From Eubacteriales bacterium (GTDB lineage: Bacteria > Bacillota > Clostridia > Oscillospirales > QAKW01): a stretch of 64,000 nucleotides of DNA. The notes below the pieces were generated by a model. That model was given only the letters and a program-made list of their open reading frames with translations. It was not told the origin of the DNA and ran no database searches. This document shows positions 3-53,690 of this stretch, one piece after another. Position 1 is the stretch's first letter; the number at the start of each line of letters is the position of its first letter. The stretch covers positions 19,848 through 83,847 of the forward strand of contig JAZNXL010000014.1 of assembly GCA_045593905.1 (NCBI GenBank), read 5' to 3'. A program made the position numbers and the translations under genes.

Positions 3-185
3 ACATCGGTTGCAGGCTACGTTGGTGTTATTGACCTTACAAAAGCAGGCGACCTTATAAGAGGACGTACTTTCTCGGCGTTTATGCCGCTTATTGCGGT
101 TGCGCTTATTTATCTTGCAATGGTTATGATTTTAACATACTTTGTAGGACTTTTAGAAAGGAGGCTTCGCAAGAGTGACAGATAA
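3..185 (+). CDS. amino-acid ABC transporter permease, C-terminal fragment (gene begins upstream of window)
   Basis: Frame-3 translation [60 protein letters not shown]. It has a hydrophobic TM segment and a basic ERRLRK tail, as in polar amino-acid permeases. The stop overlaps the ATPase start. Confidence 0.6.
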
Positions 186-915
186 TGTTATTAGTGTTAA
201 GGGTCTTAAAAAGCACTACCTTGGCGGTAGCATAAAGGCACTTGACGGCATTGATATGGACATTAAAAAGGGCGAGGTTGTGGTTGTTATTGGTCCTTCG
301 GGAAGCGGTAAATCAACCTTTTTACGAAGCCTTAATCTTACCGAAGCGCCAAGCGATGGCGAGATTTATTTTAACGGTGTTGACATTAACGGCAAAAATG
401 TTAATATTAATGTTCACCGTCAAAAAATGGGTATGGTGTTTCAGCACTTTAACCTGTTTCCACACATGACAATACTTAAAAACCTTACTATTGCACCCAT
501 AAAACTTAAGGGTATGTCAAAGGATGATGCGAAAAAGCTTGCGCTTGAAATGCTTGCGCGTGTTGGACTTGCAGACAGGGCAAACGACTATCCATCACAG
601 CTTTCGGGCGGACAAAAACAGCGTGTTGCGATTGTGCGCGCACTTTGTATGCAACCTGAGGTTATGCTGTTTGACGAGCCGACATCGGCGCTCGACCCCG
701 AAATGGTAGGCGAGGTACTTGACGTTATGCGCTCGCTTGCGGGCGAGGGTATGACAATGGTTGTTGTGACTCACGAAATGGGCTTTGCAAAAGAGGTTGG
801 CTCACGCGTGGTATTTATGGACAACGGTGTTGTTATTGAAGAGGGTTCACCAAATGATATATTTGATAACCCCAAAAACCCACGTCTTAAAGACTTTTTA
901 GGAAAAGTTTTATAA
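175..915 (+). CDS. polar amino-acid ABC transporter ATP-binding protein (GlnQ-like)
   Basis: Walker [13 protein letters not shown] signature [15 protein letters not shown], Walker [13 protein letters not shown]-loop VVTHEM. GTG start overlaps the permease end. Confidence 0.93.
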
Positions 916-931
916 ACTAAATACTAATTAA

Positions 932-959
932 AGGACACGAGAAATCGTGTCCTTTTTTT
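932..959 (+). terminator. rho-independent terminator of the ABC transporter operon
   Basis: Perfect 9-bp stem AGGACACGA / TCGTGTCCT with GAAA loop, followed by a T-run. Confidence 0.85.
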
Positions 960-1025
960 ATTTGTCACGTTGTTCGTTTTGTTCGTTTTAAGACGGTAAA
1001 ATGGAATTAGAAAGGAGAAAACGAG

Positions 1026-1256
1026 GTGGCAAAAACATTTGACGAAACAGTAAAAAAGATGTGCCGAAAAAGAATAGAATCACCCGACAGTCCTCTGCTT
1101 AAAGAGCGGTACACTGTTGAGGAGGCTATTGCCGAGGCGCTTATACGCAAGGCGTTTTCGGGTGCATCGGATGCGGTTAAGCTTTTGCGCGAGATACTCG
1201 GAACCGGCAGCTCACAAAAAGGTAATTTTCAAATTGACATTAAAGTGGTGGACTAA
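1026..1256 (+). CDS. short terminase small-subunit-like protein (76 aa)
   Basis: Sits immediately upstream of TerL and abuts it. The motif EALIRKAFSGASDAVKLLREIL resembles the C-terminal region of small terminases. GTG start 8 nt after GGAG. No HTH-like N-terminal domain is evident. Confidence 0.4.
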   Translation: MAKTFDETVKKMCRKRIESPDSPLLKERYTVEEAIAEALIRKAFSGASDAVKLLREILGTGSSQKGNFQIDIKVVD

Positions 1257-2615
1257 ATGGAGATTACCCTTACAAAAAGACAAAAGCAGTTTTGCGACGC
1301 CGACGCGTTTGAGGTGCTTTACGGCGGCGCTGCAGGTGGCGGCAAAAGCTACGGTCAGCTTGTTGACGCGTTTGTGTATGCACTTAAGTATCCTAAATCA
1401 AAGCAGATTATATTCAGGCGTACTTACGCCGAGCTTGAAAAATCACTGATACGCGCCGCTTACTCGCTGTATCCGAGCGAGGTATACAGTTATCAAAAAA
1501 CCGCTCACACGGGGACGTTTGTTAACGGTTCGATAATTGACTTTGCTTATTGCGACAGCGAGAGCGACGTGTATCGGTATCAATCAGCCGAGTACGACGT
1601 AATACGCTTTGACGAGCTTACGCATTTTACCGAGAGTATGTATGTGTATTTGACATCACGGTGCAGGGGTGCAAACCCATACCCCAAGCAGATAAAAAGC
1701 ACAACCAACCCCGGCGGTATAGGGCACTCGTGGGTAAAATCGCGGTTTATTGATATTGGTGCTTTTGAAAAGGTACACAAATGCCAAAAAACAACGCGGG
1801 TGTTTATACCTGCAACTATTAAGGATAACAGGTTTTTAATGGAGAGCGACCCTGAATACATAAAAAGGCTTGAAGCACTCGATGAGCGCGATAAAAAAGC
1901 GCTTTTATACGGTGAGTGGGAGCTTGCAGAGGGTCGGTTTTTCGATAGCTTTGAGCGTGATTTACACGTAATACGTCCTAGGCAAATTACAGGCGCTAAC
2001 TACTACATTGCTCTTGACTACGGTCTTGATATGCTTGCCGCCTACAAGGTGGCGGTTGACAGGCTTGGGTATGCATACGTTGTTGCCGAGGTATACGAGG
2101 GCAAAGACTCGGGCGGTGACGGACTTATTGTGTCGGAGGCGGCAAAGCGAATAAAAGAGCTTATAGGTAACGACAGCATTAAAGCGATATTTGCGCCGCC
2201 TGATTTATGGAACGCGCAAAAAGAGAGCGGCAAGAGTATTGCACGGCTATTTTATGAAAACGGCGTTAGCCTTAGTCGAGTTTCAAACGAGCGCGTGGCG
2301 GGTTGGATGCTGCTTAAAGAGTGGCTTAAGCCTACATACGATGAGTGCGGCGACAAAAACGCAAAGCTTAAAATATTTGATAACTGTACAAACCTTATAC
2401 GAACACTCGGCGCGATAATGTGCGATAAGCTTAACCCGTCTGATTGTGCAAATTATCCGCACGAGCTAACACACGCACCTGATGCTATGCGGTATTTTGT
2501 ATCGGGCAACCCGAAAAGCGCAAAGGTTTTAACACCGCAAAAAAGATATGGGTTTTCGTGTGAAATTCCAAAGCCGTCGGTGTACGGCATTGGTCAAAAA
2601 ATAGATATTATTTAA
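1257..2615 (+). CDS. terL: phage terminase large subunit
   Basis: Walker A GGAAGGGKSYG, Walker B YDVIRFDELTHF, and a C-terminal RNaseH-like nuclease region (IALDYGLDMLA ... HAPDAMRY). Confidence 0.9.
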   Translation: MEITLTKRQKQFCDADAFEVLYGGAAGGGKSYGQLVDAFVYALKYPKSKQIIFRRTYAELEKSLIRAAYSLYPSEVYSYQKTAHTGTFVNGSIIDFAYCDSESDVYRYQSAEYDVIRFDELTHFTESMYVYLTSRCRGANPYPKQIKSTTNPGGIGHSWVKSRFIDIGAFEKVHKCQKTTRVFIPATIKDNRFLMESDPEYIKRLEALDERDKKALLYGEWELAEGRFFDSFERDLHVIRPRQITGANYYIALDYGLDMLAAYKVAVDRLGYAYVVAEVYEGKDSGGDGLIVSEAAKRIKELIGNDSIKAIFAPPDLWNAQKESGKSIARLFYENGVSLSRVSNERVAGWMLLKEWLKPTYDECGDKNAKLKIFDNCTNLIRTLGAIMCDKLNPSDCANYPHELTHAPDAMRYFVSGNPKSAKVLTPQKRYGFSCEIPKPSVYGIGQKIDII

Positions 2616-2629
2616 AAAAAGGAGAGGCT

Positions 2630-2812
2630 ATGGTAACAGTAATTTTAATTTTACTTGTGCTTTTGGCGGTGCTGTTTATTTACACGCTTAAGAGCGCACC
2701 AAAATCAAAGCTAAAAATTAAAGAGGCAAGGCGGATAAATATGTTGCTTACCAACATTGAAAACTATAACGGAACACCGTCGGGTCAAAAAAGATTGGAG
2801 GGTAAAGAGTGA
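2630..2812 (+). CDS. small single-pass membrane protein (60 aa), unknown function
   Basis: N-terminal hydrophobic helix VTVILILLVLLAVLFIY followed by a basic tail. RBS GGAGAGG upstream. The stop overlaps the portal GTG start. Confidence 0.45.
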   Translation: MVTVILILLVLLAVLFIYTLKSAPKSKLKIKEARRINMLLTNIENYNGTPSGQKRLEGKE

Positions 2813-4272
2813 ATAGCACTGATGTAAAAGAGCTGTGGTCGCAGTATCAAAAATGCGATGACGTTATGCGTCAAATGGGCATTAATGCTGACACCGAACA
2901 GGCATATAGATTTTTCGAGGGCGACCAGTGGTACGGGCTTGAAAGCGGCGGCGAGCAGATGCCTGTTTACAACTTTATTTCGCCTATTGTCAAGTATAAA
3001 ACATCGATGGTGGCAATGAACAACATTGCAATTAACTATTCAGCGCCGACTGCGAGCGAGTACGTTTCAAAGGCGTGCGCTATGCTTTCAAAGCTCGCGC
3101 TTGCAAAATGGGAACGCTTAAAGATGGACTCAAAGTGTTGGGACATTGTTAAGTCGGCAATGATTGCAGGCGACAGCTACGCTTATTTTTATAACGGCGA
3201 CGGCGACTGTCAGGTTATTGACAGGACCGACATTATGTTTGCTGACGAAACCGAGCCTGACATTTCAAAGCAAAGCTACATTTTTATAAAAGAGCGTTTG
3301 GCGGTTGGTCAAATAAAGGAACAAGCTAAGAAAAACGGTATTAAGAATTTTGAGGATATTGTTGATGACGGCGAGGGTGACGGCAAGTGTACAGGTGTTT
3401 TAAAGCTTGAGCTTAAAGAGGGTGACCTTTATTATACACGATTTACAAAAAACGTGATATATCAGCCGACAAAGGTAATAAAAAACCTTGGCGTTTATCC
3501 TGTAGCTTCGTTTATATCTTCACCAAAGCGTTCGTCGGCAAGAGGTGTTGGCGAGGTTTTGCCCGTTGTACCTAATCAGATTGAGGTAAACCGCAACCTT
3601 GCGCGCAGGCTGCTTAATGCAAAGCTTACTGCTTATTCAAGGCTTGTATATGCCGCTGACAGAATTACAAACCCTAAAACGCTTACCGAGGTTGGAACTG
3701 CTATTGAGGTTGACGGCGGCGGTGTTAGTTCAATTAAAGATGCTATTACATACCTTACACCATCATCAATGTCACCCGATGCAAAGATGCTATCTGACGA
3801 GCTTTTGACAGTTTCAAAAGAGCTTGCAGGTGCAGGCGATGCGGCGCTTGGTAATATTGACCCGACACAAGCATCGGGCTCGGCAATTATTGCGGTACGC
3901 GACCAGTCGGCGCTTCCGCTTAACGAGCAAACTGCAAGATTTAAGCAATTTTGTGAGGAGGTCGCAAAAATATGGTACAGGCTATGGGCAGTATACGGCG
4001 CTGACGGCATTGAGCTTGAGGGCGGACAAACAATCTCGGGGGCATTGCTTTTGAAGTATGAGCCTGACATACGTGTTGACATTTCAAACACGAGTCCGTT
4101 TTCGAAATATGCGCGTGAGCAGGCTATTGAAAGGCTGTTTACTATGGGTCAGGTGACTTTTGAGGAATACGTTGAGCTTTTAGATGACGACAGCTCGGTA
4201 CCTAAAGCGAAACTTGAACATATTATAAAACAACGAGGAGGTATAAAAGATGGCGATTACCAAAATAAGTGA
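2809..4272 (+). CDS. phage portal protein
   Basis: 487 aa, directly downstream of TerL. Size, position and acidic C-terminus are typical of SPP1/HK97-type portals. Contains the motif YRFFEGDQWYG near the N-terminus. Confidence 0.75.
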   Translation: MNSTDVKELWSQYQKCDDVMRQMGINADTEQAYRFFEGDQWYGLESGGEQMPVYNFISPIVKYKTSMVAMNNIAINYSAPTASEYVSKACAMLSKLALAKWERLKMDSKCWDIVKSAMIAGDSYAYFYNGDGDCQVIDRTDIMFADETEPDISKQSYIFIKERLAVGQIKEQAKKNGIKNFEDIVDDGEGDGKCTGVLKLELKEGDLYYTRFTKNVIYQPTKVIKNLGVYPVASFISSPKRSSARGVGEVLPVVPNQIEVNRNLARRLLNAKLTAYSRLVYAADRITNPKTLTEVGTAIEVDGGGVSSIKDAITYLTPSSMSPDAKMLSDELLTVSKELAGAGDAALGNIDPTQASGSAIIAVRDQSALPLNEQTARFKQFCEEVAKIWYRLWAVYGADGIELEGGQTISGALLLKYEPDIRVDISNTSPFSKYAREQAIERLFTMGQVTFEEYVELLDDDSSVPKAKLEHIIKQRGGIKDGDYQNK

Positions 4273-4927
4273 TGAGCAATTAAACAGTGAAAAAAGATTT
4301 CATAAAAACCTTGATGATATACCTGGTAAAAGTGCAGACGATATGAAAGAGTTTATGGACTATGTTCCAAGACAGGTTATTATCCCAAAAATTAACGAGA
4401 TTGCTGACGAGGTGAACAAAATTTTACCTGAGTCGGAGGCATCGTCGCAGTATGCTTATACAATAGCGCAAACTGATGAGCTTTTAAGTAAAAAAGCAGA
4501 CAAAGATGAGCTGACACCCATTAACAACAGCCTTGACACAAAGGTTAATGCTGAGTTTGTTGAACAAAAAATTATTGAAAGCAAGCCTGTTGATTATATA
4601 GTAGAGCAAGGCACAAGCGGATTTTGGAAATATGAGAAATGGAACAGCGGTAAGTTTGTTTGCTACGGTAATAATTCGTATGCCTTCTTATCTAATAACC
4701 CAAGCGGCAGTATCTATTATAGTAATGCCACAACAATTGATTTTCCAAGCGGTTTTAACGAAGCACCGAGTTATGTGAGTGTTACAGCGCACAGACCGGT
4801 TGGGTTATACAGCTCGGTAGTTCAAGGTGTAACAAAATCAGGACTTGTTATGCTTATATATACACCTTATGCGGTTGACGAATACAATTACGATGTAAGC
4901 ATATATGCTGTCGGAAGATGGAAATAG
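4250..4927 (+). CDS. hypothetical virion protein, fibre/receptor-binding-like
   Basis: N-terminal coiled-coil-like segment, then a beta-rich C-terminal domain (GFWKYEKWNSGKFVCYG ...) resembling tail-fibre knob domains of Firmicute phages. Located just before holin and lysin, as fibres usually are. Confidence 0.35.
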   Translation: MAITKISDEQLNSEKRFHKNLDDIPGKSADDMKEFMDYVPRQVIIPKINEIADEVNKILPESEASSQYAYTIAQTDELLSKKADKDELTPINNSLDTKVNAEFVEQKIIESKPVDYIVEQGTSGFWKYEKWNSGKFVCYGNNSYAFLSNNPSGSIYYSNATTIDFPSGFNEAPSYVSVTAHRPVGLYSSVVQGVTKSGLVMLIYTPYAVDEYNYDVSIYAVGRWK

Positions 4928-4940
4928 CGAGGTTGTTAAA

Positions 4941-5381
4941 ATGGAAAGACTTAAATACTTAATAGTAGCCGTTGGCGGTGTGTTGGCAAGTTATTTTAGG
5001 GCGTATATTCCTCTTGTGGTGATTGTGGGAATATCGGTTTTATTTGACATCGTAACAGGTGTTGTTGCTGCACTTTACACAGGCGAGGGGCTAAACAGTA
5101 AAAAGGCAAGACGCGGAGCCCTTAAAAAAGCGACTATGTTCCTCGCGCTCGGGTTTGGAATATTTTTAGACTATCTTATACCGCTTGCGGTAAGTCAGGT
5201 GGGATTTTCGGCAGATATTAAGCTTATGTTTTCGAGCGTGATTGCGTTTTATATTGCGTTTTGCGAGTGTATATCGGTTTGCGAAAACATATTCAGATGC
5301 AACCCCGACGCGTTCCCAAAATGGATAGCAAGCCTGCTTACTGACGGCAAAAATCATTTAGACAAAAAAGGAGATAACTAA
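4941..5381 (+). CDS. phage holin (holin_4_1 / TcdE-like family)
   Basis: Three or four TM segments. The motif FDIVTGVVAALYTGEGLNSKKARRGALKKATMFLALGFGIFLDYL is typical of this holin family. I chose the ATG at 4941 (MERLKYL), which sits behind GAGG. The gene lies upstream of the lysin. Confidence 0.8.
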   Translation: MERLKYLIVAVGGVLASYFRAYIPLVVIVGISVLFDIVTGVVAALYTGEGLNSKKARRGALKKATMFLALGFGIFLDYLIPLAVSQVGFSADIKLMFSSVIAFYIAFCECISVCENIFRCNPDAFPKWIASLLTDGKNHLDKKGDN

Positions 5382-5959
5382 TGTTACCAATAACTAATAA
5401 TTACACAATAACTGCGGTGTTTGGGCAAACAGGTCAATACTGGGCAACAGCGCACAAGGGTATTGACTTTGTTAGCGACGACAAAAAGGTTGTTGCGGCA
5501 ACCAAGGGAACTGTAAGGGTTGTGGCTTTTGACGCGACCGGCTGGGGCAACTATGTAACAGTCGGCGATAAAAACGGATACATTCACATTTACTGCCATT
5601 TAAAATCGGTATCGGTTGTGGCAGGGCAAAAGGTGAGTATGGGCGATAGCATTGGCATTATGGGTGAAACCGGCAACGCAACAGGTGTTCATCTTCATTA
5701 CCAGATTAACGATGCAAACGGGGTGGCGATAAACCCTTCCGAGTTTTTGGGTATTAAAAACCAAAAGGGCAGTTTTGCAGCACCTGACTTGTATGCCGAC
5801 CATGGCAGTATTTCTGATTGGGCAAAAGAATCGGTTTACTTTGCAAGGCTTTCGGGCTTTATGGTTGGTGATGCAAACGGCAGGTTTAACCCGAGCGCGC
5901 CGCTTACACGCGAGCAGGCGGCAGTAATAATACACAATATTGCTAAAAATAAGGAGTAA
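5381..5959 (+). CDS. endolysin: M23 metallopeptidase fused to a C-terminal SLH cell-wall-binding domain
   Basis: M23 motifs HKGIDF (HxxxD) and GVHLHYQI (HxH). The C-terminus ISDWAKESVYFARLSGFMVGDANGRFNPSAPLTREQAAVIIHNI matches the SLH consensus. Start overlaps the holin stop. Confidence 0.85.
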   Translation: MLPITNNYTITAVFGQTGQYWATAHKGIDFVSDDKKVVAATKGTVRVVAFDATGWGNYVTVGDKNGYIHIYCHLKSVSVVAGQKVSMGDSIGIMGETGNATGVHLHYQINDANGVAINPSEFLGIKNQKGSFAAPDLYADHGSISDWAKESVYFARLSGFMVGDANGRFNPSAPLTREQAAVIIHNIAKNKE

Positions 5960-5964
5960 AAAAT

Positions 5965-6507
5965 ATGGAAAACAAAAATGTGGTAAACGACACACAACAG
6001 GCGGTCGTGGCGCCTGATATGGCAGTGAGTGAAAATAGCGGTGCTGTGAGCACAGATACGGGGGTCGCAAACCGTACACAAACTGCCGAGCAAAATTCCG
6101 GCTTTAGAAAAATGCGCCTTGAAAACGAGCGTTACAAAAAAGAGCTCGAGAGCGTAAAGAGTAAAAGCAACATTTATCTTAACAGGCTTGTTGAGAATAA
6201 AATGAAAAGCGACCTTGACGCAATAAAGGCGCTCGACCCCGAAGTGCAAAGCCTTGAAGGCATCGGCGACAGTTTTATTAAGCTTATTGAAAACGGCATT
6301 GACGCTATTACTGCATACTATGCCGTTAAAAAAGCAACCGACGGCAAGGAAAGCCAAAAGTCGCCCGAGAGCATTGGCATGGTTGGTGCGCCAAGGGTAC
6401 ATCAAAGCGAGTTTTACTCCTCGAGGGAACTTGACAGGTTAACAGCGCGCGACCTTGAAAACCCCGCAATTTATAAAAAAGCAATGGAATCATTAAAACG
6501 ACTTTAA
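5965..6507 (+). CDS. putative capsid scaffolding protein
   Basis: 180 aa, charged and helical (RLENERYKKELESVKSK), positioned immediately upstream of the major capsid gene. Confidence 0.5.
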   Translation: MENKNVVNDTQQAVVAPDMAVSENSGAVSTDTGVANRTQTAEQNSGFRKMRLENERYKKELESVKSKSNIYLNRLVENKMKSDLDAIKALDPEVQSLEGIGDSFIKLIENGIDAITAYYAVKKATDGKESQKSPESIGMVGAPRVHQSEFYSSRELDRLTARDLENPAIYKKAMESLKRL

Positions 6508-6524
6508 AAAAGGAGAACTAAATC

Positions 6525-7340
6525 ATGGCATATTCAAATTTTAAACCTACTATCTGGTCAAAATTTATTCAGACCGAGCTTGAAAAAAAGTGCAGACTTG
6601 TTGAGGACTGCTGGACACAGTTTGAGGGCGAAGCAAAGCAGGGCGCACGCGTTAAGATTTTAGGTGTTACCGCACCCGAAATTTTTGACTACGTTCCCGG
6701 CAATGGTATTCCTGCACCTACAACTATTGAGGGTACAAGCATTCAGCTTGATATTGACCAGGCAAAAGCATTCAACTTTATGATTGACGACATTGACAAG
6801 GCACAGTCGGTTAGCGGACTTATGGAAACTCTTATTAAAGAGGCTACCGCCAAAATGGCAAGAGCACGCGACAGCTACGTTGCTTCGCTTGCGAAAGATG
6901 CAGAGTACTTTGAAGAGTCTAATTTATACTTATCACCCGCCGAAGCAAAAAATGCTATTGACAGAGCGCTGTTACAGTTAAGAGAAAACGACGTTGATAT
7001 TGATGATGAGGTTACAATTACTGTATCACCTTTCTTTTATCAGCTTTTCCGCGATGCGCTTACCGAAATTAAAACCAACAACGACGAGCTTATTAAAAAA
7101 GGCGTTGTAGGTATGTATGACAACTGCAAGGTAAAGGTTTCAAACAACCTTTATAACGATGGCACCGATGACTATATTATGATTAGAACAAAACGCGCTA
7201 TCGCGTTTGCAGGCGCTATTGATGAGACTGAGGCTTACCGCCCCGAAAGCCACTTTGCTGACGCTGTAAAAGGTCTTAATGTTTTTGGTGCAAAGATTGT
7301 ACGACCCAAAGAACTTTACGTTATTAAGGCACACAGATAA
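6525..7340 (+). CDS. phage major capsid protein
   Basis: 271 aa. The N-terminus MAYSNFKPTIWSKFIQTELEKK resembles the (F/Y)xPxIWS start of small HK97-fold capsid proteins. Strong RBS AAGGAGAA. Follows the scaffold gene. Confidence 0.7.
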   Translation: MAYSNFKPTIWSKFIQTELEKKCRLVEDCWTQFEGEAKQGARVKILGVTAPEIFDYVPGNGIPAPTTIEGTSIQLDIDQAKAFNFMIDDIDKAQSVSGLMETLIKEATAKMARARDSYVASLAKDAEYFEESNLYLSPAEAKNAIDRALLQLRENDVDIDDEVTITVSPFFYQLFRDALTEIKTNNDELIKKGVVGMYDNCKVKVSNNLYNDGTDDYIMIRTKRAIAFAGAIDETEAYRPESHFADAVKGLNVFGAKIVRPKELYVIKAHR

Positions 7341-7372
7341 TAACGGCACAGTATAAAAAGGAGGTGTAAAGG

Positions 7373-7876
7373 GTGACAATAGGCGAGGCTAATAAAATTG
7401 TAAAATCGCTTATAGGCGAAGACGATTTTTATGACGTAAGCGACGTTATTGCAAGCTATTACGGTATTGCCCAAAGGCTTATAGCTACTACCGTCTGCCC
7501 TATAATAAAGTCAGTAACACTCAAGTGCGGAAAGGGTGTATTGCTTCCTGAAGACTTGTACCGAATTAAAAGCATTTCAAACGGCTATGTACGAACTGAC
7601 AAAACACACGTTGATATTGACGGCGAGGGCGAGGCTAAGGTGTGGTACTATGCGTATCCTACCGACGTTTCAGATAACACCCCCGATACATACGAGTTTG
7701 AGCTTGACCCCGAGGCGCAAAGTGCGTTGCCGTTTTATGCGGCGGCACAGACTGTTCTTGCCGATAGCGATATGCGAAGATACAACGCGTTTATTGATAG
7801 CTTTAATAACATACTTTCAAACATTGCCCAGGTCGATGCAAAGCCGTTTTTAACGGTTGTTAAAACAGAGGTGTAG
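7373..7876 (+). CDS. hypothetical protein, possible head-tail adaptor/head completion protein
   Basis: 167 aa directly after the capsid gene, with RBS AAGGAGGTG and a GTG start. The call rests on position only. Confidence 0.3.
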   Translation: MTIGEANKIVKSLIGEDDFYDVSDVIASYYGIAQRLIATTVCPIIKSVTLKCGKGVLLPEDLYRIKSISNGYVRTDKTHVDIDGEGEAKVWYYAYPTDVSDNTPDTYEFELDPEAQSALPFYAAAQTVLADSDMRRYNAFIDSFNNILSNIAQVDAKPFLTVVKTEV

Positions 7877-7878
7877 CC

Positions 7879-9810
7879 ATGAGGTTTATAAGACAAGGAT
7901 TAAGACAAGCATCGGCATCATCAGGCAGTGTAAGAGCCGAAAAGCTTTACGGCATTGACGCTGTAACACAGGAACGTGAAACATCAATTACGCGCGCAGA
8001 CGGGCAAAGCTCGTTTTTAGAAAAAATAACTCCCGGCTGTGTTAATATGATAAGAAAAAGCGAGGGTACAGTTAAAAAGCGCCCCGCGTACTCTATAATA
8101 TCTCACCCCGATACCCTTTCGGGTATCGGCGGTGTGTATGTTTACAAGGCCTACAACCGTGATATTCTTTTCTATGTAAAGGGCGATACCATTGAAATGG
8201 TTGACGGTGACAGAACGACAACCTTTAAAACCAACTATAATCTTGACGGTTCACGTGCTGTTCAGTACGACGAATACCTTGTGCTCATCAACAAGGAAGG
8301 TATGAGTATTGTAAGAGCGGGCAGGGGAGAAATTAATTACTGGAGTAATAAAAGCCTGAGCGACCTTAACACCTATGCTTATATCCCTACTATTTACATT
8401 GGAAACACGCCAAACGGTGCAGGAAGTGCATACGAGGGTGTAAACAGGCTGACAGACAGGGTTTGCGAGCTATATCAGGGCGATGGTGAGAGCTGTGAGT
8501 TTAAAACACACCTTAAAGCTACCGATTATGTAATTTATATAAAATCGGATAGCGGAGAGTGGTCGGCAAGAGACCCCGACTATATTACAAACTACTCGGT
8601 TGCTTTTAAAACTGCACCGCCAAAGCCAAGCGTTGCGGGTGAGGATAACGTTAAAATTGAATACAAAATGAAAGATGCCAAAACTCCTGCGTGGGACCTA
8701 TCACAATGTACATGCGGTGCCGTTTACGGTGCCGGCGGACTTAAAGACAGGCTGTTTTTATCGGGTAGCTTTGCTGCACCCGGAATGGTTTTTTATTCGG
8801 CGCTTGAAAACCCGTTTTATTTTCCCGAGTACAACTATATTAACGTTGGCGGTTACGAAAACGATATTTACGGGCTTATAAATCACGATTCGGCGCTTGC
8901 GGTGCTTACCAAAGACGCGGTGTACACGATAACCTCGGACGACAGCATAAGTGCTGCGGTATTGCACGATGCGGTATTTAAAATCAGTGACGTTTATGTA
9001 ACGCCCGAGCCTGTAAGTCCTCAAAACTCGTATCTGTTTGACGGCGAGCCTGTATACCTTACAAAAAACGGTGTTTGTTCGCTTACTGCAAGCGGTATAC
9101 TTGACGAGCGTTGTGCACAAATTCGCTCGGCAAGAATAAATCTGCATTTGTTGAAGGAAAACCTAAAAGAGTGCATAGCAATGCCGTTTAAAGATTATTT
9201 TGTAATTTCAAACTGCAGCGATACTTTGTATCTTTTAGACGGTAAGCAGTTTTCGACCGATTCTACGCAGCCGTTTTCGTCAAGGCAGTATGAGGGGTAT
9301 ATATGGAAAGGCATAAACGCAAAAATGCTTTGGGTACAAAACGATAAACTGTGCTTTTCAAACGGCGAGCACGCGTATTGCTTTAATAACGAAAGGATAT
9401 TTGCCGATGAGGTGGCACCCGGTGAGTTTTGTGATATTGAGGCATTTTGGGAAACGCCGTATATTTACTGCGGTGACTTTAAAGACTTTAAGTTTTTTAA
9501 CCGCATAGGAATACTTGTTGACGGCACCGACGAAAGCGGAGCCGAAAAAGGTACCGACTTTGAAATGTTTGTAAGGTTTGATAACGAGCCCTGGCGCGCG
9601 GTTAAAAAATATGGCGCCTTACTTTCAATGTTTGACTATGGTGTTATTGATTATGGGTGTTTTAATTACTCGGGTAGGGTAAAAAACTATGCACTGTCGG
9701 TTAAGCTTTTGCACAAAAAAGGCAGGGGTATTAAAATTCGTTTTCAAAACTCAAAGAAAAATCAGCCGTTTACAATGCTCAGGTTTGGCATTGATTTTAT
9801 GAAAATGTAA
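7879..9810 (+). CDS. large hypothetical virion-associated protein (643 aa), possible tail/nozzle component
   Basis: Long intact ORF abutting the previous gene, beta-rich, with no motif I can assign. Confidence 0.3.
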   Translation: MRFIRQGLRQASASSGSVRAEKLYGIDAVTQERETSITRADGQSSFLEKITPGCVNMIRKSEGTVKKRPAYSIISHPDTLSGIGGVYVYKAYNRDILFYVKGDTIEMVDGDRTTTFKTNYNLDGSRAVQYDEYLVLINKEGMSIVRAGRGEINYWSNKSLSDLNTYAYIPTIYIGNTPNGAGSAYEGVNRLTDRVCELYQGDGESCEFKTHLKATDYVIYIKSDSGEWSARDPDYITNYSVAFKTAPPKPSVAGEDNVKIEYKMKDAKTPAWDLSQCTCGAVYGAGGLKDRLFLSGSFAAPGMVFYSALENPFYFPEYNYINVGGYENDIYGLINHDSALAVLTKDAVYTITSDDSISAAVLHDAVFKISDVYVTPEPVSPQNSYLFDGEPVYLTKNGVCSLTASGILDERCAQIRSARINLHLLKENLKECIAMPFKDYFVISNCSDTLYLLDGKQFSTDSTQPFSSRQYEGYIWKGINAKMLWVQNDKLCFSNGEHAYCFNNERIFADEVAPGEFCDIEAFWETPYIYCGDFKDFKFFNRIGILVDGTDESGAEKGTDFEMFVRFDNEPWRAVKKYGALLSMFDYGVIDYGCFNYSGRVKNYALSVKLLHKKGRGIKIRFQNSKKNQPFTMLRFGIDFMKM

Positions 9811-9823
9811 AGGAGAAAACAAA

Positions 9824-10807
9824 TTGGCAAGTATATTTGATAAGCAAATAATGTCAGATGCCGATATAAAGCGTATTGACGAGCTTGGGGCACTCTGGCA
9901 ATCGGCAACTGACCAAAAGACAAAAGACCAGATACACCAAAAAGCTGAGGCAATAAGACTCAGCTACGGCTACAGCGGCGGTGATGACGGTTATCAGTTT
10001 ATTTTAAATAACCAAAATGTTCATAATACTGCGGCGGCAACAAATGCGTATACTGATGCGTTAAAATCGGCAAACGAACAGGCGCAAAAGCAGTATAAAC
10101 AAAACCTTGAACAAGCAGAGGATACAGGCAAGGCAAGGCTTAAAGAGGCATACGTAAAAAATATGCAAGACAGCCTTGGTATTGACCAACAGCTTAAAAA
10201 GGCGGGTATTACAGGCGGTGTTACCGAAAGCACCCGCGCGTATATGACCAATATATATAACAACAATCGAAACGATATTATTGACGATGTTAATACGCTC
10301 AAAAGCCAGATTATGAACGATGCAAAAAAGACTGACAGCGAGTATAAAGAGGGTATTGCGAAGGCAGAGTATGACGGCGCGCTCAAGCGTAGCGAGGCGA
10401 TAACCGATGCCGAACAGTTTGAATACAAAAAACAGCTTGACGAGTATAAAAAGTCAATTGACGAGCGCGACTTTGAGTATAAAAAATTAAAAGACGAGCT
10501 TGACCAAAAAGCGTCGGCATCGAAATCGGCATCGAAATCGTCATCGTCGTCTAAAAGCAGCATTACACCTTCGAGCGTTCTTTCGCTTATGAAGGCGGGT
10601 ATTTACGACAAGTCGTTTGCCGGTATTTTAGGCGTTAGTGATGACGAGGTTAAAAAGATTGTTGATACCTACAAAAACAAAGACCAGCAAAGCGCGGCAT
10701 GGCGTATGCTTCAAAACGGTATTTACGATGATTCTTTCCCCGAGATTTTGGGATATTCGGAAGAAGTATTGCTTAACTATGTGAACAGCGTGTTAAATGG
10801 TTTTTAA
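9824..10807 (+). CDS. hypothetical coiled-coil protein (327 aa) with Ser/Lys linker and duplicated C-terminal motif
   Basis: K/E/Q-rich helical core, a SASKSASKSSSSSKSS linker, then two related ~35-aa repeats (AGIYDKSFAGILGVSDDEV / NGIYDDSFPEILGYSEEVL). TTG start after AAGGAGAA. Confidence 0.3.
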   Translation: MASIFDKQIMSDADIKRIDELGALWQSATDQKTKDQIHQKAEAIRLSYGYSGGDDGYQFILNNQNVHNTAAATNAYTDALKSANEQAQKQYKQNLEQAEDTGKARLKEAYVKNMQDSLGIDQQLKKAGITGGVTESTRAYMTNIYNNNRNDIIDDVNTLKSQIMNDAKKTDSEYKEGIAKAEYDGALKRSEAITDAEQFEYKKQLDEYKKSIDERDFEYKKLKDELDQKASASKSASKSSSSSKSSITPSSVLSLMKAGIYDKSFAGILGVSDDEVKKIVDTYKNKDQQSAAWRMLQNGIYDDSFPEILGYSEEVLLNYVNSVLNGF

Positions 10808-10810
10808 ATA

Positions 10811-10839
10811 TTGATTTTGTAAAATCAGTGTGGTAAAAT
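10811..10839 (+). promoter_or_regulatory. sigma-A type promoter upstream of pdxK
   Basis: TTGATT, 17-nt spacer, TAAAAT, with a TG at the extended -10 position (TGGTAAAAT). Confidence 0.45.
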
Positions 10840-12215: not shown

Positions 12216-12240
12216 AAAGAGCCTTTAAGGCTCTTTTTTA
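12214..12240. terminator. bidirectional rho-independent terminator between convergent genes
   Basis: Stem AGAGCC / GGCTCT with a 5-nt loop, flanked by an A-run on the left and a T-run on the right. Confidence 0.75.
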
Positions 12241-13005
12241 TTTCTCGTTTTTTAAGTATTCGTGCAGTGTTGAAAGAAAAACTGCGTTTGTTGGGCAACC
12301 GCGCTTTTGGCTGATTGAGTTGCCAAACAATGATTGTATAGATTGGTCACTACAGTTATCCCACGAGCTTTCGATTGCATAGCGTATATTCTTTTCGACG
12401 CTCTTAGCTGAAATGTTATGAAGCTTTGCAAGTGTGGGGTAGAGCGCTTTGGTATAGCAGTTTAAAAGCGACGGGTCGTCGAGTGTCAGCATAAGTGCGT
12501 CAAACACTATTTTATAGCCTTTTGTACCGCTTGCAAGACCGACTCTGTGTAAAATTTCACGTACACGCTTTTTGTTAATTGCAACAATGTCTTTGGTGGG
12601 TGCGGTTGAACTTTTTTCAAAGAGCAGTCCATTAATGCGCGAGTCGAGGTCGATAAAATCGAGCGGAAACAGGCAGTAAACATCAATTCCTATTTCGTAT
12701 AGCCTGTTAATGCTTTTGTCAAGCATTCCGCTGCCAACAACCACAAACGCGGTGCCGCGCAGTAAATCGCGCTTTTTAAGCATTTGATAAAGCGAGCAGC
12801 AGTCCATATCGAAAAGATGGCGTGAGCAAACTATAACTTGAGGCGACAGCTGGGCAATTTGCTTTGCCGAATCGAGCGCGTACTGTGAGCGGCCTACAAT
12901 ATTGTAGTCAAACTCGTTTGCAAACGCGGTTATCTCGGTTTCAATTTGCCTGTCTGCCGAGGCTATAAAAAGACTAAGCCTTTGGGCGCTAGTTTCTAAG
13001 TGCAT
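12238..13005 (-). CDS. Spo0A_C-domain DNA-binding protein with degenerate (pseudo-)receiver N-terminus
   Basis: The C-terminus [64 protein letters not shown]...PTNAVF aligns with the Spo0A effector domain. The N-terminal part lacks the DD, phospho-Asp, Thr and Lys receiver residues. Confidence 0.75.
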
Positions 13006-21563: not shown

Positions 21564-21881
21564 CATTAGGCGTGACTAAATGCGATGATGCGGGAGGTGG
21601 CTGCAAGGCAGCATTTGTCCTGTCTTTTGCAGGGAATTTCCGCGGAGTATGTTCGGTTTAAAACCGGGCGGCAAACGGTCTAAATTTAAACACAGTAAAG
21701 GTTCTTGGAACTGCCGGATGTATCCGGTAAGCCGCAAAAGAGAGTTTTTGCGCCAAAGGTTCGGTTAAAATTAACCGATTTTTTTATGGGAGCGTGTGGA
21801 ACACACGGCTTAGTGTTAAAATTTATTTCGGTAAAATTGCTGTCAAAACCAAATAATTCATTATTTAAGGAGGATAAGCAA
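21564..21881 (+). promoter_or_regulatory. long structured 5' leader of the S10 operon with terminator-like hairpin
   Basis: About 310 nt between promoter and rpsJ with several hairpins (21714-21727, 21733-21752, 21792-21806). The stem TCGGTTA / TAACCGA at 21761-21778 is followed by T7. Confidence 0.5.
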
Positions 21882-53232: not shown

Positions 53233-53690
53233 AGCAACGAGTAAATCTGTAAGCCGAGTTCTGTCGTGAACGGCCATCTATCTGGAGAATACATTACTGC
53301 ACCTCTCAAGCCACCCGTCAAGGCTCAAGCGGACGAACAGCCCATCGCCTTTGTCGGTGTTGCATCGGATAGGGTTTACAGCGGACCTATGTCACCATAG
53401 GAACTTGTGAGCTCTTACCTCACCTTTCCACCCTTACACGTCGTCCCAAACTTCGCTATATTCGGATTTTGTGTATGCAAATCCTTCATTGGCTCCGTTG
53501 CTCCTCCTTTCCGATTTAAATTTTGCAATTTAAATCGGGCAAAAGAATTGCTTCGCAACAACGAGCGGTTTATTTCTGTTGCACTTTCCCTGAGGTCACC
53601 CTCGGTGGACGTTATCCATTATCCTGTTCTGTGATGCTCGGACTTTCCTCCATAGCAAATGCTACGGCGGCCGTTTAATTTACTCGTCGG
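53233..53690 (-). ncRNA. rnpB: RNase P RNA, bacterial type A, ~458 nt
   Basis: The minus strand contains GGAGGAAAGUCCGAGC, GUGCAACAGAAA, GUAAGGGUGGAAAGGUGAGGUAAGAGCUCAC, GGUAAACCC and ACGACAGAACUCGGCUUACAG. P1 pairs 53690-53678 with 53246-53233. Confidence 0.93.

Follow-up and report, generated by a model that had tools for sequence, protein, structure and literature searches.

The 64,000-nucleotide stretch of Eubacteriales DNA analysed here (the window) carries, between a gene for an ABC-transporter ATPase and a pdxK-like gene, an operon of twelve phage-derived genes preceded by its own promoter. The operon is best explained as a cluster that came from a small podovirus-type phage, was fixed in the chromosome of an uncultured lineage of gut Clostridia and is kept as a particle system of the gene transfer agent (GTA) or 'viriform' kind; from sequence comparison, the probability of this reading was put at about 60%. 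Its gene content corresponds to the general definition of a GTA or viriform, i.e. a structural and packaging cluster devoid of replication, integration and lysogeny genes. Transcription would be driven by a single promoter made of a TGTTCG repeat and a TAAAAT box, the repeat probably being bound by an unlinked activator. A procapsid would be built from the portal, the scaffold and the HK97-fold capsid protein. The large terminase (TerL) and o1, the protein encoded at the small terminase (TerS) position, would then carry out headful packaging with little sequence specificity, which would bring chromosomal DNA into the heads. The head would be closed and a short tail formed by the adaptor, nozzle, fibre and last gene product (o12), and the producer cell would be lysed by the holin and the M23-SLH lysin. 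Finally, the fibre would direct the particle to cells of the producer's own species or of a close one, in which the delivered DNA could recombine. Particle formation, packaging of host DNA, its transfer and the identity of the regulator are steps that we infer.

One genome per GTDB species was scanned for related loci, which were sorted by tblastn and clustering of open reading frames (ORFs). Eighty loci were kept, none of them from a Faecalibacterium genome. The cluster of the window belongs to group A, which comprises the window, 12 further GTDB species representatives (L003 to L014) and one metagenome-assembled genome (MAG; L163) added through an exact-protein look-up. Throughout group A the gene order is that of the window, with the fibre, holin and lysin genes between those for the portal and the scaffold. 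The right flank is pdxK-ecfS, or ecfS alone (L005, L006 and L163), wherever the contig extends that far. In L163 both flanks are as in the window (ABC transporter on the left; ecfS, DUF711, AsnC and aminotransferase genes on the right). The original prediction had asked whether the cluster sits at one site across species: it does so in the 12 further species representatives and in L163.

Ratios of nonsynonymous to synonymous substitution rates (dN/dS) were calculated for pairs of group A genomes using the Nei-Gojobori method, and likewise answered a question raised by that prediction. Values for all cluster genes lay between 0.01 and 0.26, as low as or below those of the flanking host genes, which indicates purifying selection (capsid 0.01-0.07, portal 0.02-0.12, TerL 0.05-0.10, nozzle 0.05-0.20 and o12 0.05-0.22; among the flanks, pdxK 0.10-0.20, ecfS 0.12-0.20 and DUF711 0.02-0.05). 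Synonymous divergence (dS) ranged from 0.24 to 3.2 and exceeded 1 in most pairs, so that synonymous sites are at or near saturation; within a given genome pair it was similar in the cluster and in the flanking genes (about 0.7-1.6 against 0.9-1.5 for L009 and L010). Protein identities of cluster and flanks were correlated over 63 group A pairs (r = 0.77). The G+C content at third codon positions (GC3) of the cluster varied from 0.33 to 0.70 among group A species and tracked that of the flanks (r = 0.94, p = 4.5e-6, n = 12); the corresponding correlation in group C, described below, was 0.82. In the window itself, GC3 was 0.437 for the cluster and 0.409 for the host genes, with a correlation of relative synonymous codon usage of 0.84, which bears out the lack of a compositional break first noticed by eye. 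These comparisons argue that the group A cluster has been inherited vertically under purifying selection across species. The proposal of a fixed, domesticated phage-derived cluster is well supported by the multi-species synteny, the dN/dS values and the GC3 correlation.

The layout of the operon was re-derived (Table 1). Its twelve same-strand ORFs span 9.8 kb, with gaps from 5' to 3' of 0, 14, -4, -23, -23, -1, 5, 17, 32, 2 and 13 nt, matching the tight packing and overlaps described before, and AGGAG-type ribosome-binding sites precede most of them. All 12 genes are intact, as had been stated. Integrase, repressor and replication domains were absent from Pfam, PHROG and NCBIfam scans of the 12 ORFs and their flanks, and tape-measure, tube, sheath and baseplate domains were absent from the same scans of the 12 ORFs; the absences claimed in the original prediction therefore hold at the level of these families. 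The longest word common to the two cluster borders was 8 nt, i.e. no repeat resembling an attachment (att) site was found between them, and no PADLOC defence family matched in the cluster. The hallmarks of a prophage (integrase, repressor, replication module, att sites and patchy distribution) are thus not displayed by the cluster. Both flanks are host genes with signals of their own, since the terminator on the left and a promoter-like site on the right were recovered as announced. Judging from the ribosomal-protein leader, the S10-spc-alpha block of ribosomal genes lies about 11 kb downstream of the operon. Elsewhere in the window, a bacterial RNase P class A RNA lies at 53234-53686.

Table 1. 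Features of the operon and of its surroundings (positions in the window; aa, amino acids; RBS, ribosome-binding site; HTH, helix-turn-helix)
Feature	Position	Strand	Matches and remarks
ABC-transporter ATPase gene (ABC_tran)	175-915		Left flank
Terminator of the ABC-transporter ATPase gene	930-955	+	11-bp stem, 4-nt loop, T-run; left boundary of the element
Operon including promoter	971-10807	+	Twelve ORFs at 1026-10807
Direct repeat TGTTCGTTT-TGTTCG = TGTTCGTTTTGTTCG	971-985	+	In the place of a -35 element, between terminator and o1
-10 box TAAAAT	997-1002	+	11 nt 3' of the repeat
RBS AAAGGAG	1011-1017	+	Precedes the GTG start of o1
o1, TerS-position protein, 76 aa	1026-1256	+	GTG start; no family match; 0-nt gap to TerL
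TerL, large terminase (ATPase + nuclease), 452 aa	1257-2615	+	PF03237, PF04466, phrog_979 (E 1.9e-51)
o3, small, probably transmembrane protein, 60 aa	2630-2812	+	N-terminal hydrophobic stretch; from sequence only
Portal, 487 aa	2809-4272	+	PF16510 P22_portal, phrog_156
Tail fibre / receptor-binding protein, 225 aa	4250-4927	+	C-terminus matches phrog_2712 (E 2.8e-15)
Holin, 158 aa	4905-5381	+	PF05105 Phage_holin_4_1 (E 1.9e-17)
Endolysin, M23 peptidase + SLH cell-wall-binding domain, 192 aa	5381-5959	+	PF01551, PF00395
Probable scaffolding protein, 180 aa	5965-6507	+	Directly 5' of the capsid gene; no family match
Major capsid protein, HK97 fold, 271 aa	6525-7340	+	PF25209, phrog_267
Head-to-tail adaptor, SU10 type, 167 aa	7373-7876	+	PF24175 (weak), phrog_13046
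Tail nozzle, 643 aa	7879-9810	+	phrog_3287 virion structural protein
o12, 327 aa	9824-10807	+	Conserved N-terminus, K/E-rich coiled coil, two C-terminal HTH-like repeats
Promoter-like site	10811-10839		Right flank, followed by pdxK-like, ECF-S and DUF711 genes
S10-Clostridia ribosomal-protein leader	21577-21674		Rfam

Family matches agreed with most of the functions proposed earlier, i.e. the packaging ATPase-nuclease, the portal, the HK97-like capsid protein, the fibre-like protein and the holin/endolysin pair. TerL carries both motifs on which its identification had been based, GGAAGGGKS and VIRFDE, and its C-terminal part is also matched by nuclease PHROGs. It resembles the PBSX-family terminase TIGR01547 weakly (55 bits, below the cut-off). 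The portal is about 24% identical to those of the Bacillus podophages Page and Pony. The slot between the TerL and portal genes, filled by o3 in the window, always holds a small gene of about 60-85 aa (families c22, c16 and c38) in groups A and C and in the phages. The groups' versions have no detectable mutual similarity, and the product starts with a hydrophobic stretch in the window and in phage L154.

The capsid, adaptor and nozzle proteins were compared with known structures by means of profiles built from their homologues in related loci. The capsid profile matched the capsid protein gp6 of mycobacteriophage Che8 (8e16, E 3.9e-41). Foldseek with the capsid model also ranked 8e16 first and the N4 capsid as a weak match; the mean predicted local distance difference test score (pLDDT) of this model is 60 overall, and it confirms the HK97 fold. 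The protein thus belongs to the Che8 / phiCP26F / D6E type. No match to the N4-gp56 family TIGR04387 was obtained for the window capsid (E<=0.1) or for 10 of its relatives (E<=10). The scaffold label, given on position, belongs to ORF 5965-6507, which corrects the original prediction. A protein at this position (c0) is kept in 68 loci; as called, it measures 117-214 aa in group A, 134-234 aa in group C and 234-290 aa in the phage relatives, and the shorter form in the fixed groups may hint at a smaller capsid. Long open frames lie antisense to the scaffold and capsid genes (in the window at 5836-6405, minus strand). An antisense family (c9) faces the capsid gene in 32 loci, with frames of up to 542 aa in some; these frames misled simple longest-ORF calling and are probably an artefact of codon composition.

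The o1 protein was predicted by AlphaFold2 to be all-helical, with three helices (pLDDT 83), and no HTH or other DNA-binding domain was recognizable in it in domain scans or in the model. Foldseek found no match for this model. A profile search gave 101 members of the o1 family, of 76-133 aa, and genes of this type precede that for TerL in groups A, C, D and E, whereas the phage relatives have a TerS of 135-217 aa with an N-terminal HTH. In the longer relatives the o1 region is at the C-terminus, and these belong to phrog_2412 and DUF5681, two families of unknown function. When the o1 family was compared with the long HTH-bearing TerS proteins by hhalign, the expected C-terminal helix was aligned, at a non-significant E of 0.21.

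The original prediction described a cluster without tail-tube genes, and is corrected in that a short tail of adaptor, nozzle and fibre is encoded. A fold search on the ORFs left unclassified, as had been suggested at the time, is what revealed the first two. The adaptor profile matched the adaptor of Escherichia phage SU10 (7z47, E 7.8e-6). The N-terminus of the nozzle profile matched Tail tubular protein B (9k09_U, E 3.7e-7), and the following region matched beta-propeller proteins; on these two grounds the ORF was assigned as a podovirus nozzle. It is about 23-25% identical to virion proteins of the Bacillus phages Pascal, Page and Pony. With an adaptor and a nozzle, the predicted particle is complete and short-tailed. 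The o12 gene (c6) is found 3' of the nozzle gene in 47 loci, and its product is probably part of the virion, as a plug, needle or ejection protein. Comparison of its C-terminal repeats with the designed consensus 'CAP repeat' 8vd6 gave E values of 0.1-0.4 per repeat, a weak hint only.

Across the loci, the fibre protein varies from 225 to 641 aa; its N-terminal 55-100 aa are conserved and its C-terminal domain is swapped. It is missing in L008. In L014 it is 77% identical to the fibre of a co-binned phage and is the best-conserved gene of that pair. With a conserved anchor and exchanged C-terminal domains, the fibre behaves as a working receptor-binding protein. The lysis genes are in the middle of the operon (4905-5959), not at its end. 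L014 has exchanged the M23-SLH lysin for one of the Amidase_3-SLH type, in which the SLH domain is retained. These changes in fibre and lysin can be read as signs that the cluster is still in use.

Relatives of the capsid protein are numerous (>4,000 protein clusters). The top 120, almost all from MAGs of uncultured Clostridia, are about 270-284 aa long (except one 415-aa fusion), and their identity falls along a smooth gradient from 100% to 62%; a search with SecY gave a parallel gradient. Besides group A, fixed clusters were found at other sites. In group C (about 30 species), the module lies between dUTPase/SLH-amidase/DAG-kinase genes and NUDIX/SpoIID/DegV genes, and the lysis genes are at the cluster end. 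In group D (L058, L054, L061 and L063), the flanks are HAD-hydrolase, Fe-ADH and AMP-binding host genes. A gene for a CI-like repressor (HTH_3 + Peptidase_S24) is the immediate divergent neighbour of the group D cluster (L058:4813-5478, minus strand), which suggests SOS-type control of that group. No integrase was found in groups A, C or D. In group B contigs, the same structural module is followed by many small ORFs on the opposite strand, and these contigs look like true small podophages. One of them, L015 (JAZQDN010000043.1, 20,189 bp), encodes a rolling-circle Rep (PF23343), a 217-aa HTH-bearing TerS and small opposite-strand ORFs, and is possibly a complete podophage of about 20 kb. Its G+C content is 44% against 54% for the host flanks of L003, the MAG with which it was binned, which makes its host assignment doubtful, and the claim of a shared host was dropped.

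In a neighbour-joining tree of TerL, portal and capsid, built without the window's own sequences, the neighbour of group A was phage L015, and group C stood next to other phages of group B, a hint that domestication or relocation may have happened more than once. In IMG/VR, among the best 80 of 239 confirmed relatives, two contigs had a capsid identity of at least 65%, and one of these, L083 (9,620 bp), consists of the o1-o12 cluster alone. Two entries named 'Bacteriophage sp.' from human faeces may be fragments or similar small elements: L002 (MT836592.1, 9,588 bp) has relatives of TerS, TerL, portal (47% identical), capsid and nozzle, and L166 (MT836833.1, 10,829 bp) has a nozzle match only (26.5%), with no terminal repeats found. 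In four group A loci, a minus-strand tRNA-Met gene stands just left of the cluster (L009:2658-2733, L010:3085-3160, L011:380-455 and L012:1818-1893). These loci form one subclade of group A, with SLH-protein genes lying in between in L011 and L012; the window has no such tRNA gene. The tRNA-Met may mark an ancestral integration site.

The repeat upstream of o1 is a probable activator-binding site standing in for the -35 element. The exact 15-mer occurs once in the window and at the same spot upstream of the cluster in seven other species (L003, L004 and L008-L012), and nowhere else in the 2.28 Mb of fetched loci. The motif is kept in 8/9 of the group A upstream regions examined, being degenerate in L006, and the orthologous loci keep the geometry (repeat, 11-13 nt, TAAAAT or TATAAT). 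At the equivalent position, group C has TGTKCG-N4-YGTKCG, 11-13 nt and TATAAT. In three phages from IMG/VR (L152, L154 and L157), TGTGCGTTTTGTGCG and then TAAAAT precede terS/terL, directly 3' of a 140-aa gene resembling sigma region 4. This gene is homologous to c20 of group C (tblastn E 1.7e-5 to 9e-4). As the motif is found in group C and in phages, beside a homologous sigma-region-4-like gene, its most likely origin is a late promoter of the ancestor, on which a small activator acted. In group C, the NUDIX gene is followed by an Xre-type HTH gene (66 aa) and by c20 (about 110-130 aa), located at L021:16360-17042 and L164:16935-17650; the two form a candidate repressor-activator pair for the domesticated cluster. 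Within the window, a 255-aa protein with a Spo0A_C DNA-binding domain (E 7.8e-29) is encoded on the minus strand at 12238-13005. Pfam shows no receiver domain in its N-terminal 147 residues; its counterpart in L003 has 209 aa and is 23% identical, and the gene is not kept beside the cluster in other group A loci.

Several observations weigh against the GTA-like interpretation. The left flank differs among group A species, the alternatives to the ABC transporter being a gene for an EF-G-like/YacP-domain fusion, LytR_cpsA_psr, SLH proteins or tRNA-Met. In group C, the correlation between cluster and flank identities is absent (r = 0.22, by a crude test), and the argument for vertical inheritance is therefore made for group A only. 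It is position that designates o1 as a candidate short TerS. Relatives of the capsid protein form capsids of several sizes, for genomes of about 39-60 kb, and together with the relative of about 20 kb this means that the 9.8-kb locus might fit its own head. Neither tblastn nor hmmsearch --max detected a c20-type activator in the 64-kb window or up to 10 kb from the group A loci. Lastly, the promoter motif is present in true phages too, so that expression might require infection by a phage. The gene for the regulator of the window operon could lie elsewhere in the host genome, or such a phage could bring it.

This last point leads to the main live alternative, which we judge unlikely: a phage-triggered element, either satellite-like or acting as a defence decoy. 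The late activator of an infecting phage would bind the TGTTCG repeat and switch the operon on, and either host DNA would hitch-hike by transduction, or the cell would lyse prematurely and the phage be hindered. The arrangement in L152, L154 and L157, with repeat and -10 box placed after the sigma-region-4-like gene and before terS/terL, speaks for this reading. Group C keeps c20 and the Xre-type HTH gene, whereas group A, the window included, has none within reach, and group B phage-like contigs were binned with several cluster-bearing MAGs. However, neither the motif nor a c20-type activator was detected in the group B phage loci. The cluster also lacks the integrase, primase/rep and repressor of satellites of the phage-inducible chromosomal island (PICI) type, and the absence of a PADLOC match counts against this reading. 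Moreover, only part of the genome is visible, so that an unlinked, host-encoded activator is equally possible.

Packaging anchored at a site, akin to lateral transduction or to packaging of the element itself, is distinctly unlikely. Here, o1 and TerL would use a pac site in the locus, and particles would contain mostly the element and the downstream pdxK, ECF-S and S10 region, not the genome at random. The location of the cluster some 11 kb upstream of the S10-spc ribosomal operons would suit this, lateral transduction has been reported for a Christensenellales prophage, and a 9.8-kb cluster could fit heads sized for the genome of L015. On the other hand, o1 has no recognizable DNA-binding domain, no replication function is present to amplify the locus and no sequence feature marks a pac site. 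The operon might also be kept as a killer particle or lysis device of the PBSX kind, which would harm competitors or release cell contents, the packaged DNA being incidental. PBSX packages host DNA yet works as a bacteriocin, the weak resemblance of TerL to TIGR01547 points the same way, and the lysis cassette is conserved within the operon. This explanation is very unlikely, since the contractile sheath, tube and baseplate, the lethal parts of PBSX and tailocins, are absent, and TerL, portal and capsid are the most constrained genes (dN/dS 0.01-0.12), which argues that DNA-filled heads matter. Finally, a recent deletion remnant of a podovirus-like prophage, intact because of its youth, would agree with the phage-like relatives that share the module and, in group B, retain a rolling-circle Rep and a long HTH-bearing TerS, but was rejected as extremely improbable given the intact copies that 12 further species representatives and L163 have at one and the same site, dS near saturation and similar to that of the flanks, dN/dS of 0.01-0.26 and GC3 equilibrated with each host.

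Beyond the window, a broader and tentative claim can be made for the GTA-like reading, to which we give somewhat less than even odds. Together with the related clusters fixed elsewhere (groups C and D, and probably E), the operon would make up a large undescribed family of podovirus-derived GTAs, present in more than 40 species of uncultured gut Clostridia and distinct from FpGTA, the GTA of Faecalibacterium prausnitzii. This family would have been domesticated more than once or relocated, and would share a late promoter with a TGTKCG repeat under group-specific regulators. It could underlie the 4-7 kb GTA-like packaging of non-Faecalibacterium Clostridia seen in faecal virus-like particles. 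Few GTAs are known outside the Alphaproteobacteria, and neither a gut GTA nor a podovirus-like one had been described before FpGTA (2024-2026). The study that described it found the responsible genes only in Faecalibacterium, and the window operon offers a concrete single-locus candidate for other gut Clostridia. The wider family, with its 80 loci from GTDB species representatives and its >4,000 capsid-protein clusters, mixes fixed clusters and true phages, and the defined promoter motif and the candidate regulators provide testable handles. If the interpretation is correct, abundant gut anaerobes that have not been cultured would commonly encode, in their own genomes, a phage-derived means of exchanging DNA, and the several fixed versions would provide a natural series for studying phage domestication.

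Among known systems, the RcGTA-type GTAs of Alphaproteobacteria are host-regulated chromosomal clusters that are passed on vertically under purifying selection, contain no genes for replication or integration and have a TerS that lacks a DNA-binding domain. RcGTA is siphovirus-like, with a tape measure and a tail tube, unlinked lysis and fibre genes, and control by CtrA/GafA. The window cluster shares with it the chromosomal location of head, packaging and tail genes, the lack of genes for replication and integration, and vertical inheritance under purifying selection; it differs in being podovirus-type, held in a single locus and without detectable sequence relationship. PBSX of Bacillus is an element of about 28 kb with a myovirus-like sheath and tube, regulated by Xre/Xpf, which packages host DNA, lyses its producer and acts as a bacteriocin. 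Both are domesticated phage elements of Firmicutes, and the weak TerL similarity to TIGR01547 has been mentioned; for the tail of the window cluster, made of adaptor and nozzle, no homology to that of PBSX was found. The nearest isolated phages are the Bacillus megaterium podophages Page, Pony, Pookie and Pascal, with portal and nozzle about 23-25% identical, and the adaptor is like that of SU10. These, in contrast, replicate autonomously by modules of their own and have genomes of about 40-77 kb, and the window capsid is of the Che8/phiCP26F/D6E type. Like the window cluster, capsid-forming PICIs (cf-PICIs) are small chromosomal elements with their own capsid, portal and terminase. They are, however, mobile, with integrase, repressor and primase/rep and without tail or lysis genes; the window cluster is the opposite and is fixed at one site.

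The system that comes nearest is FpGTA, a podovirus-like GTA in which genes for replication and integration are absent (Borodovich et al., Nat Commun 2026; PMC12946183). Its operon I (10.5 kb) encodes a short TerS, TerL, portal, a Prp-like protein, an 'N4-gp56 family' capsid, a nozzle and 'TolA', and its operon II (5.5 kb), about 125 kb away, contains the fibre, holin and lysin genes (PMC12946183). Its 40-nm particles contain 8.4-8.9 kb of host DNA, and it was present in 12/12 of the Faecalibacterium genomes examined (PMC12946183). The statement in the original prediction that such a gene set was not known to have been described in Clostridia is therefore out of date. GTA-like packaging was also reported, without an identified gene cluster, for Christensenellaceae, Oscillospiraceae, Onthomonas, Gemmiger and Ruminococcus (R. 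callidus) (PMC12946183). When compared by description, with the window known from its genes alone, the two systems share a size of about 10 kb, an origin in gut Clostridia and a series formed by a TerS-position protein, TerL, portal, a gene at the scaffold position, capsid, nozzle and a final Lys/Glu-rich protein. The absence of an HTH from o1 recalls, as a parallel only, the TerS without DNA-binding domain of both FpGTA and RcGTA. The two systems differ in that the FpGTA capsid (RCH50849.1) is named 'N4-gp56 family', whereas the window capsid and 10 relatives have no TIGR04387 match (a proxy test); that fibre, holin and lysin (4250-5959) belong to a single operon in the window, whereas FpGTA uses two; and that the Prp-like gene preceding the capsid gene in FpGTA has no equivalent in the window cluster. 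The GTA kind is thus already known. What is new here, as far as sequence analysis supports it, is a podovirus-type cluster gathered in a single locus, with a capsid of a family other than that of FpGTA on the same comparison by description.

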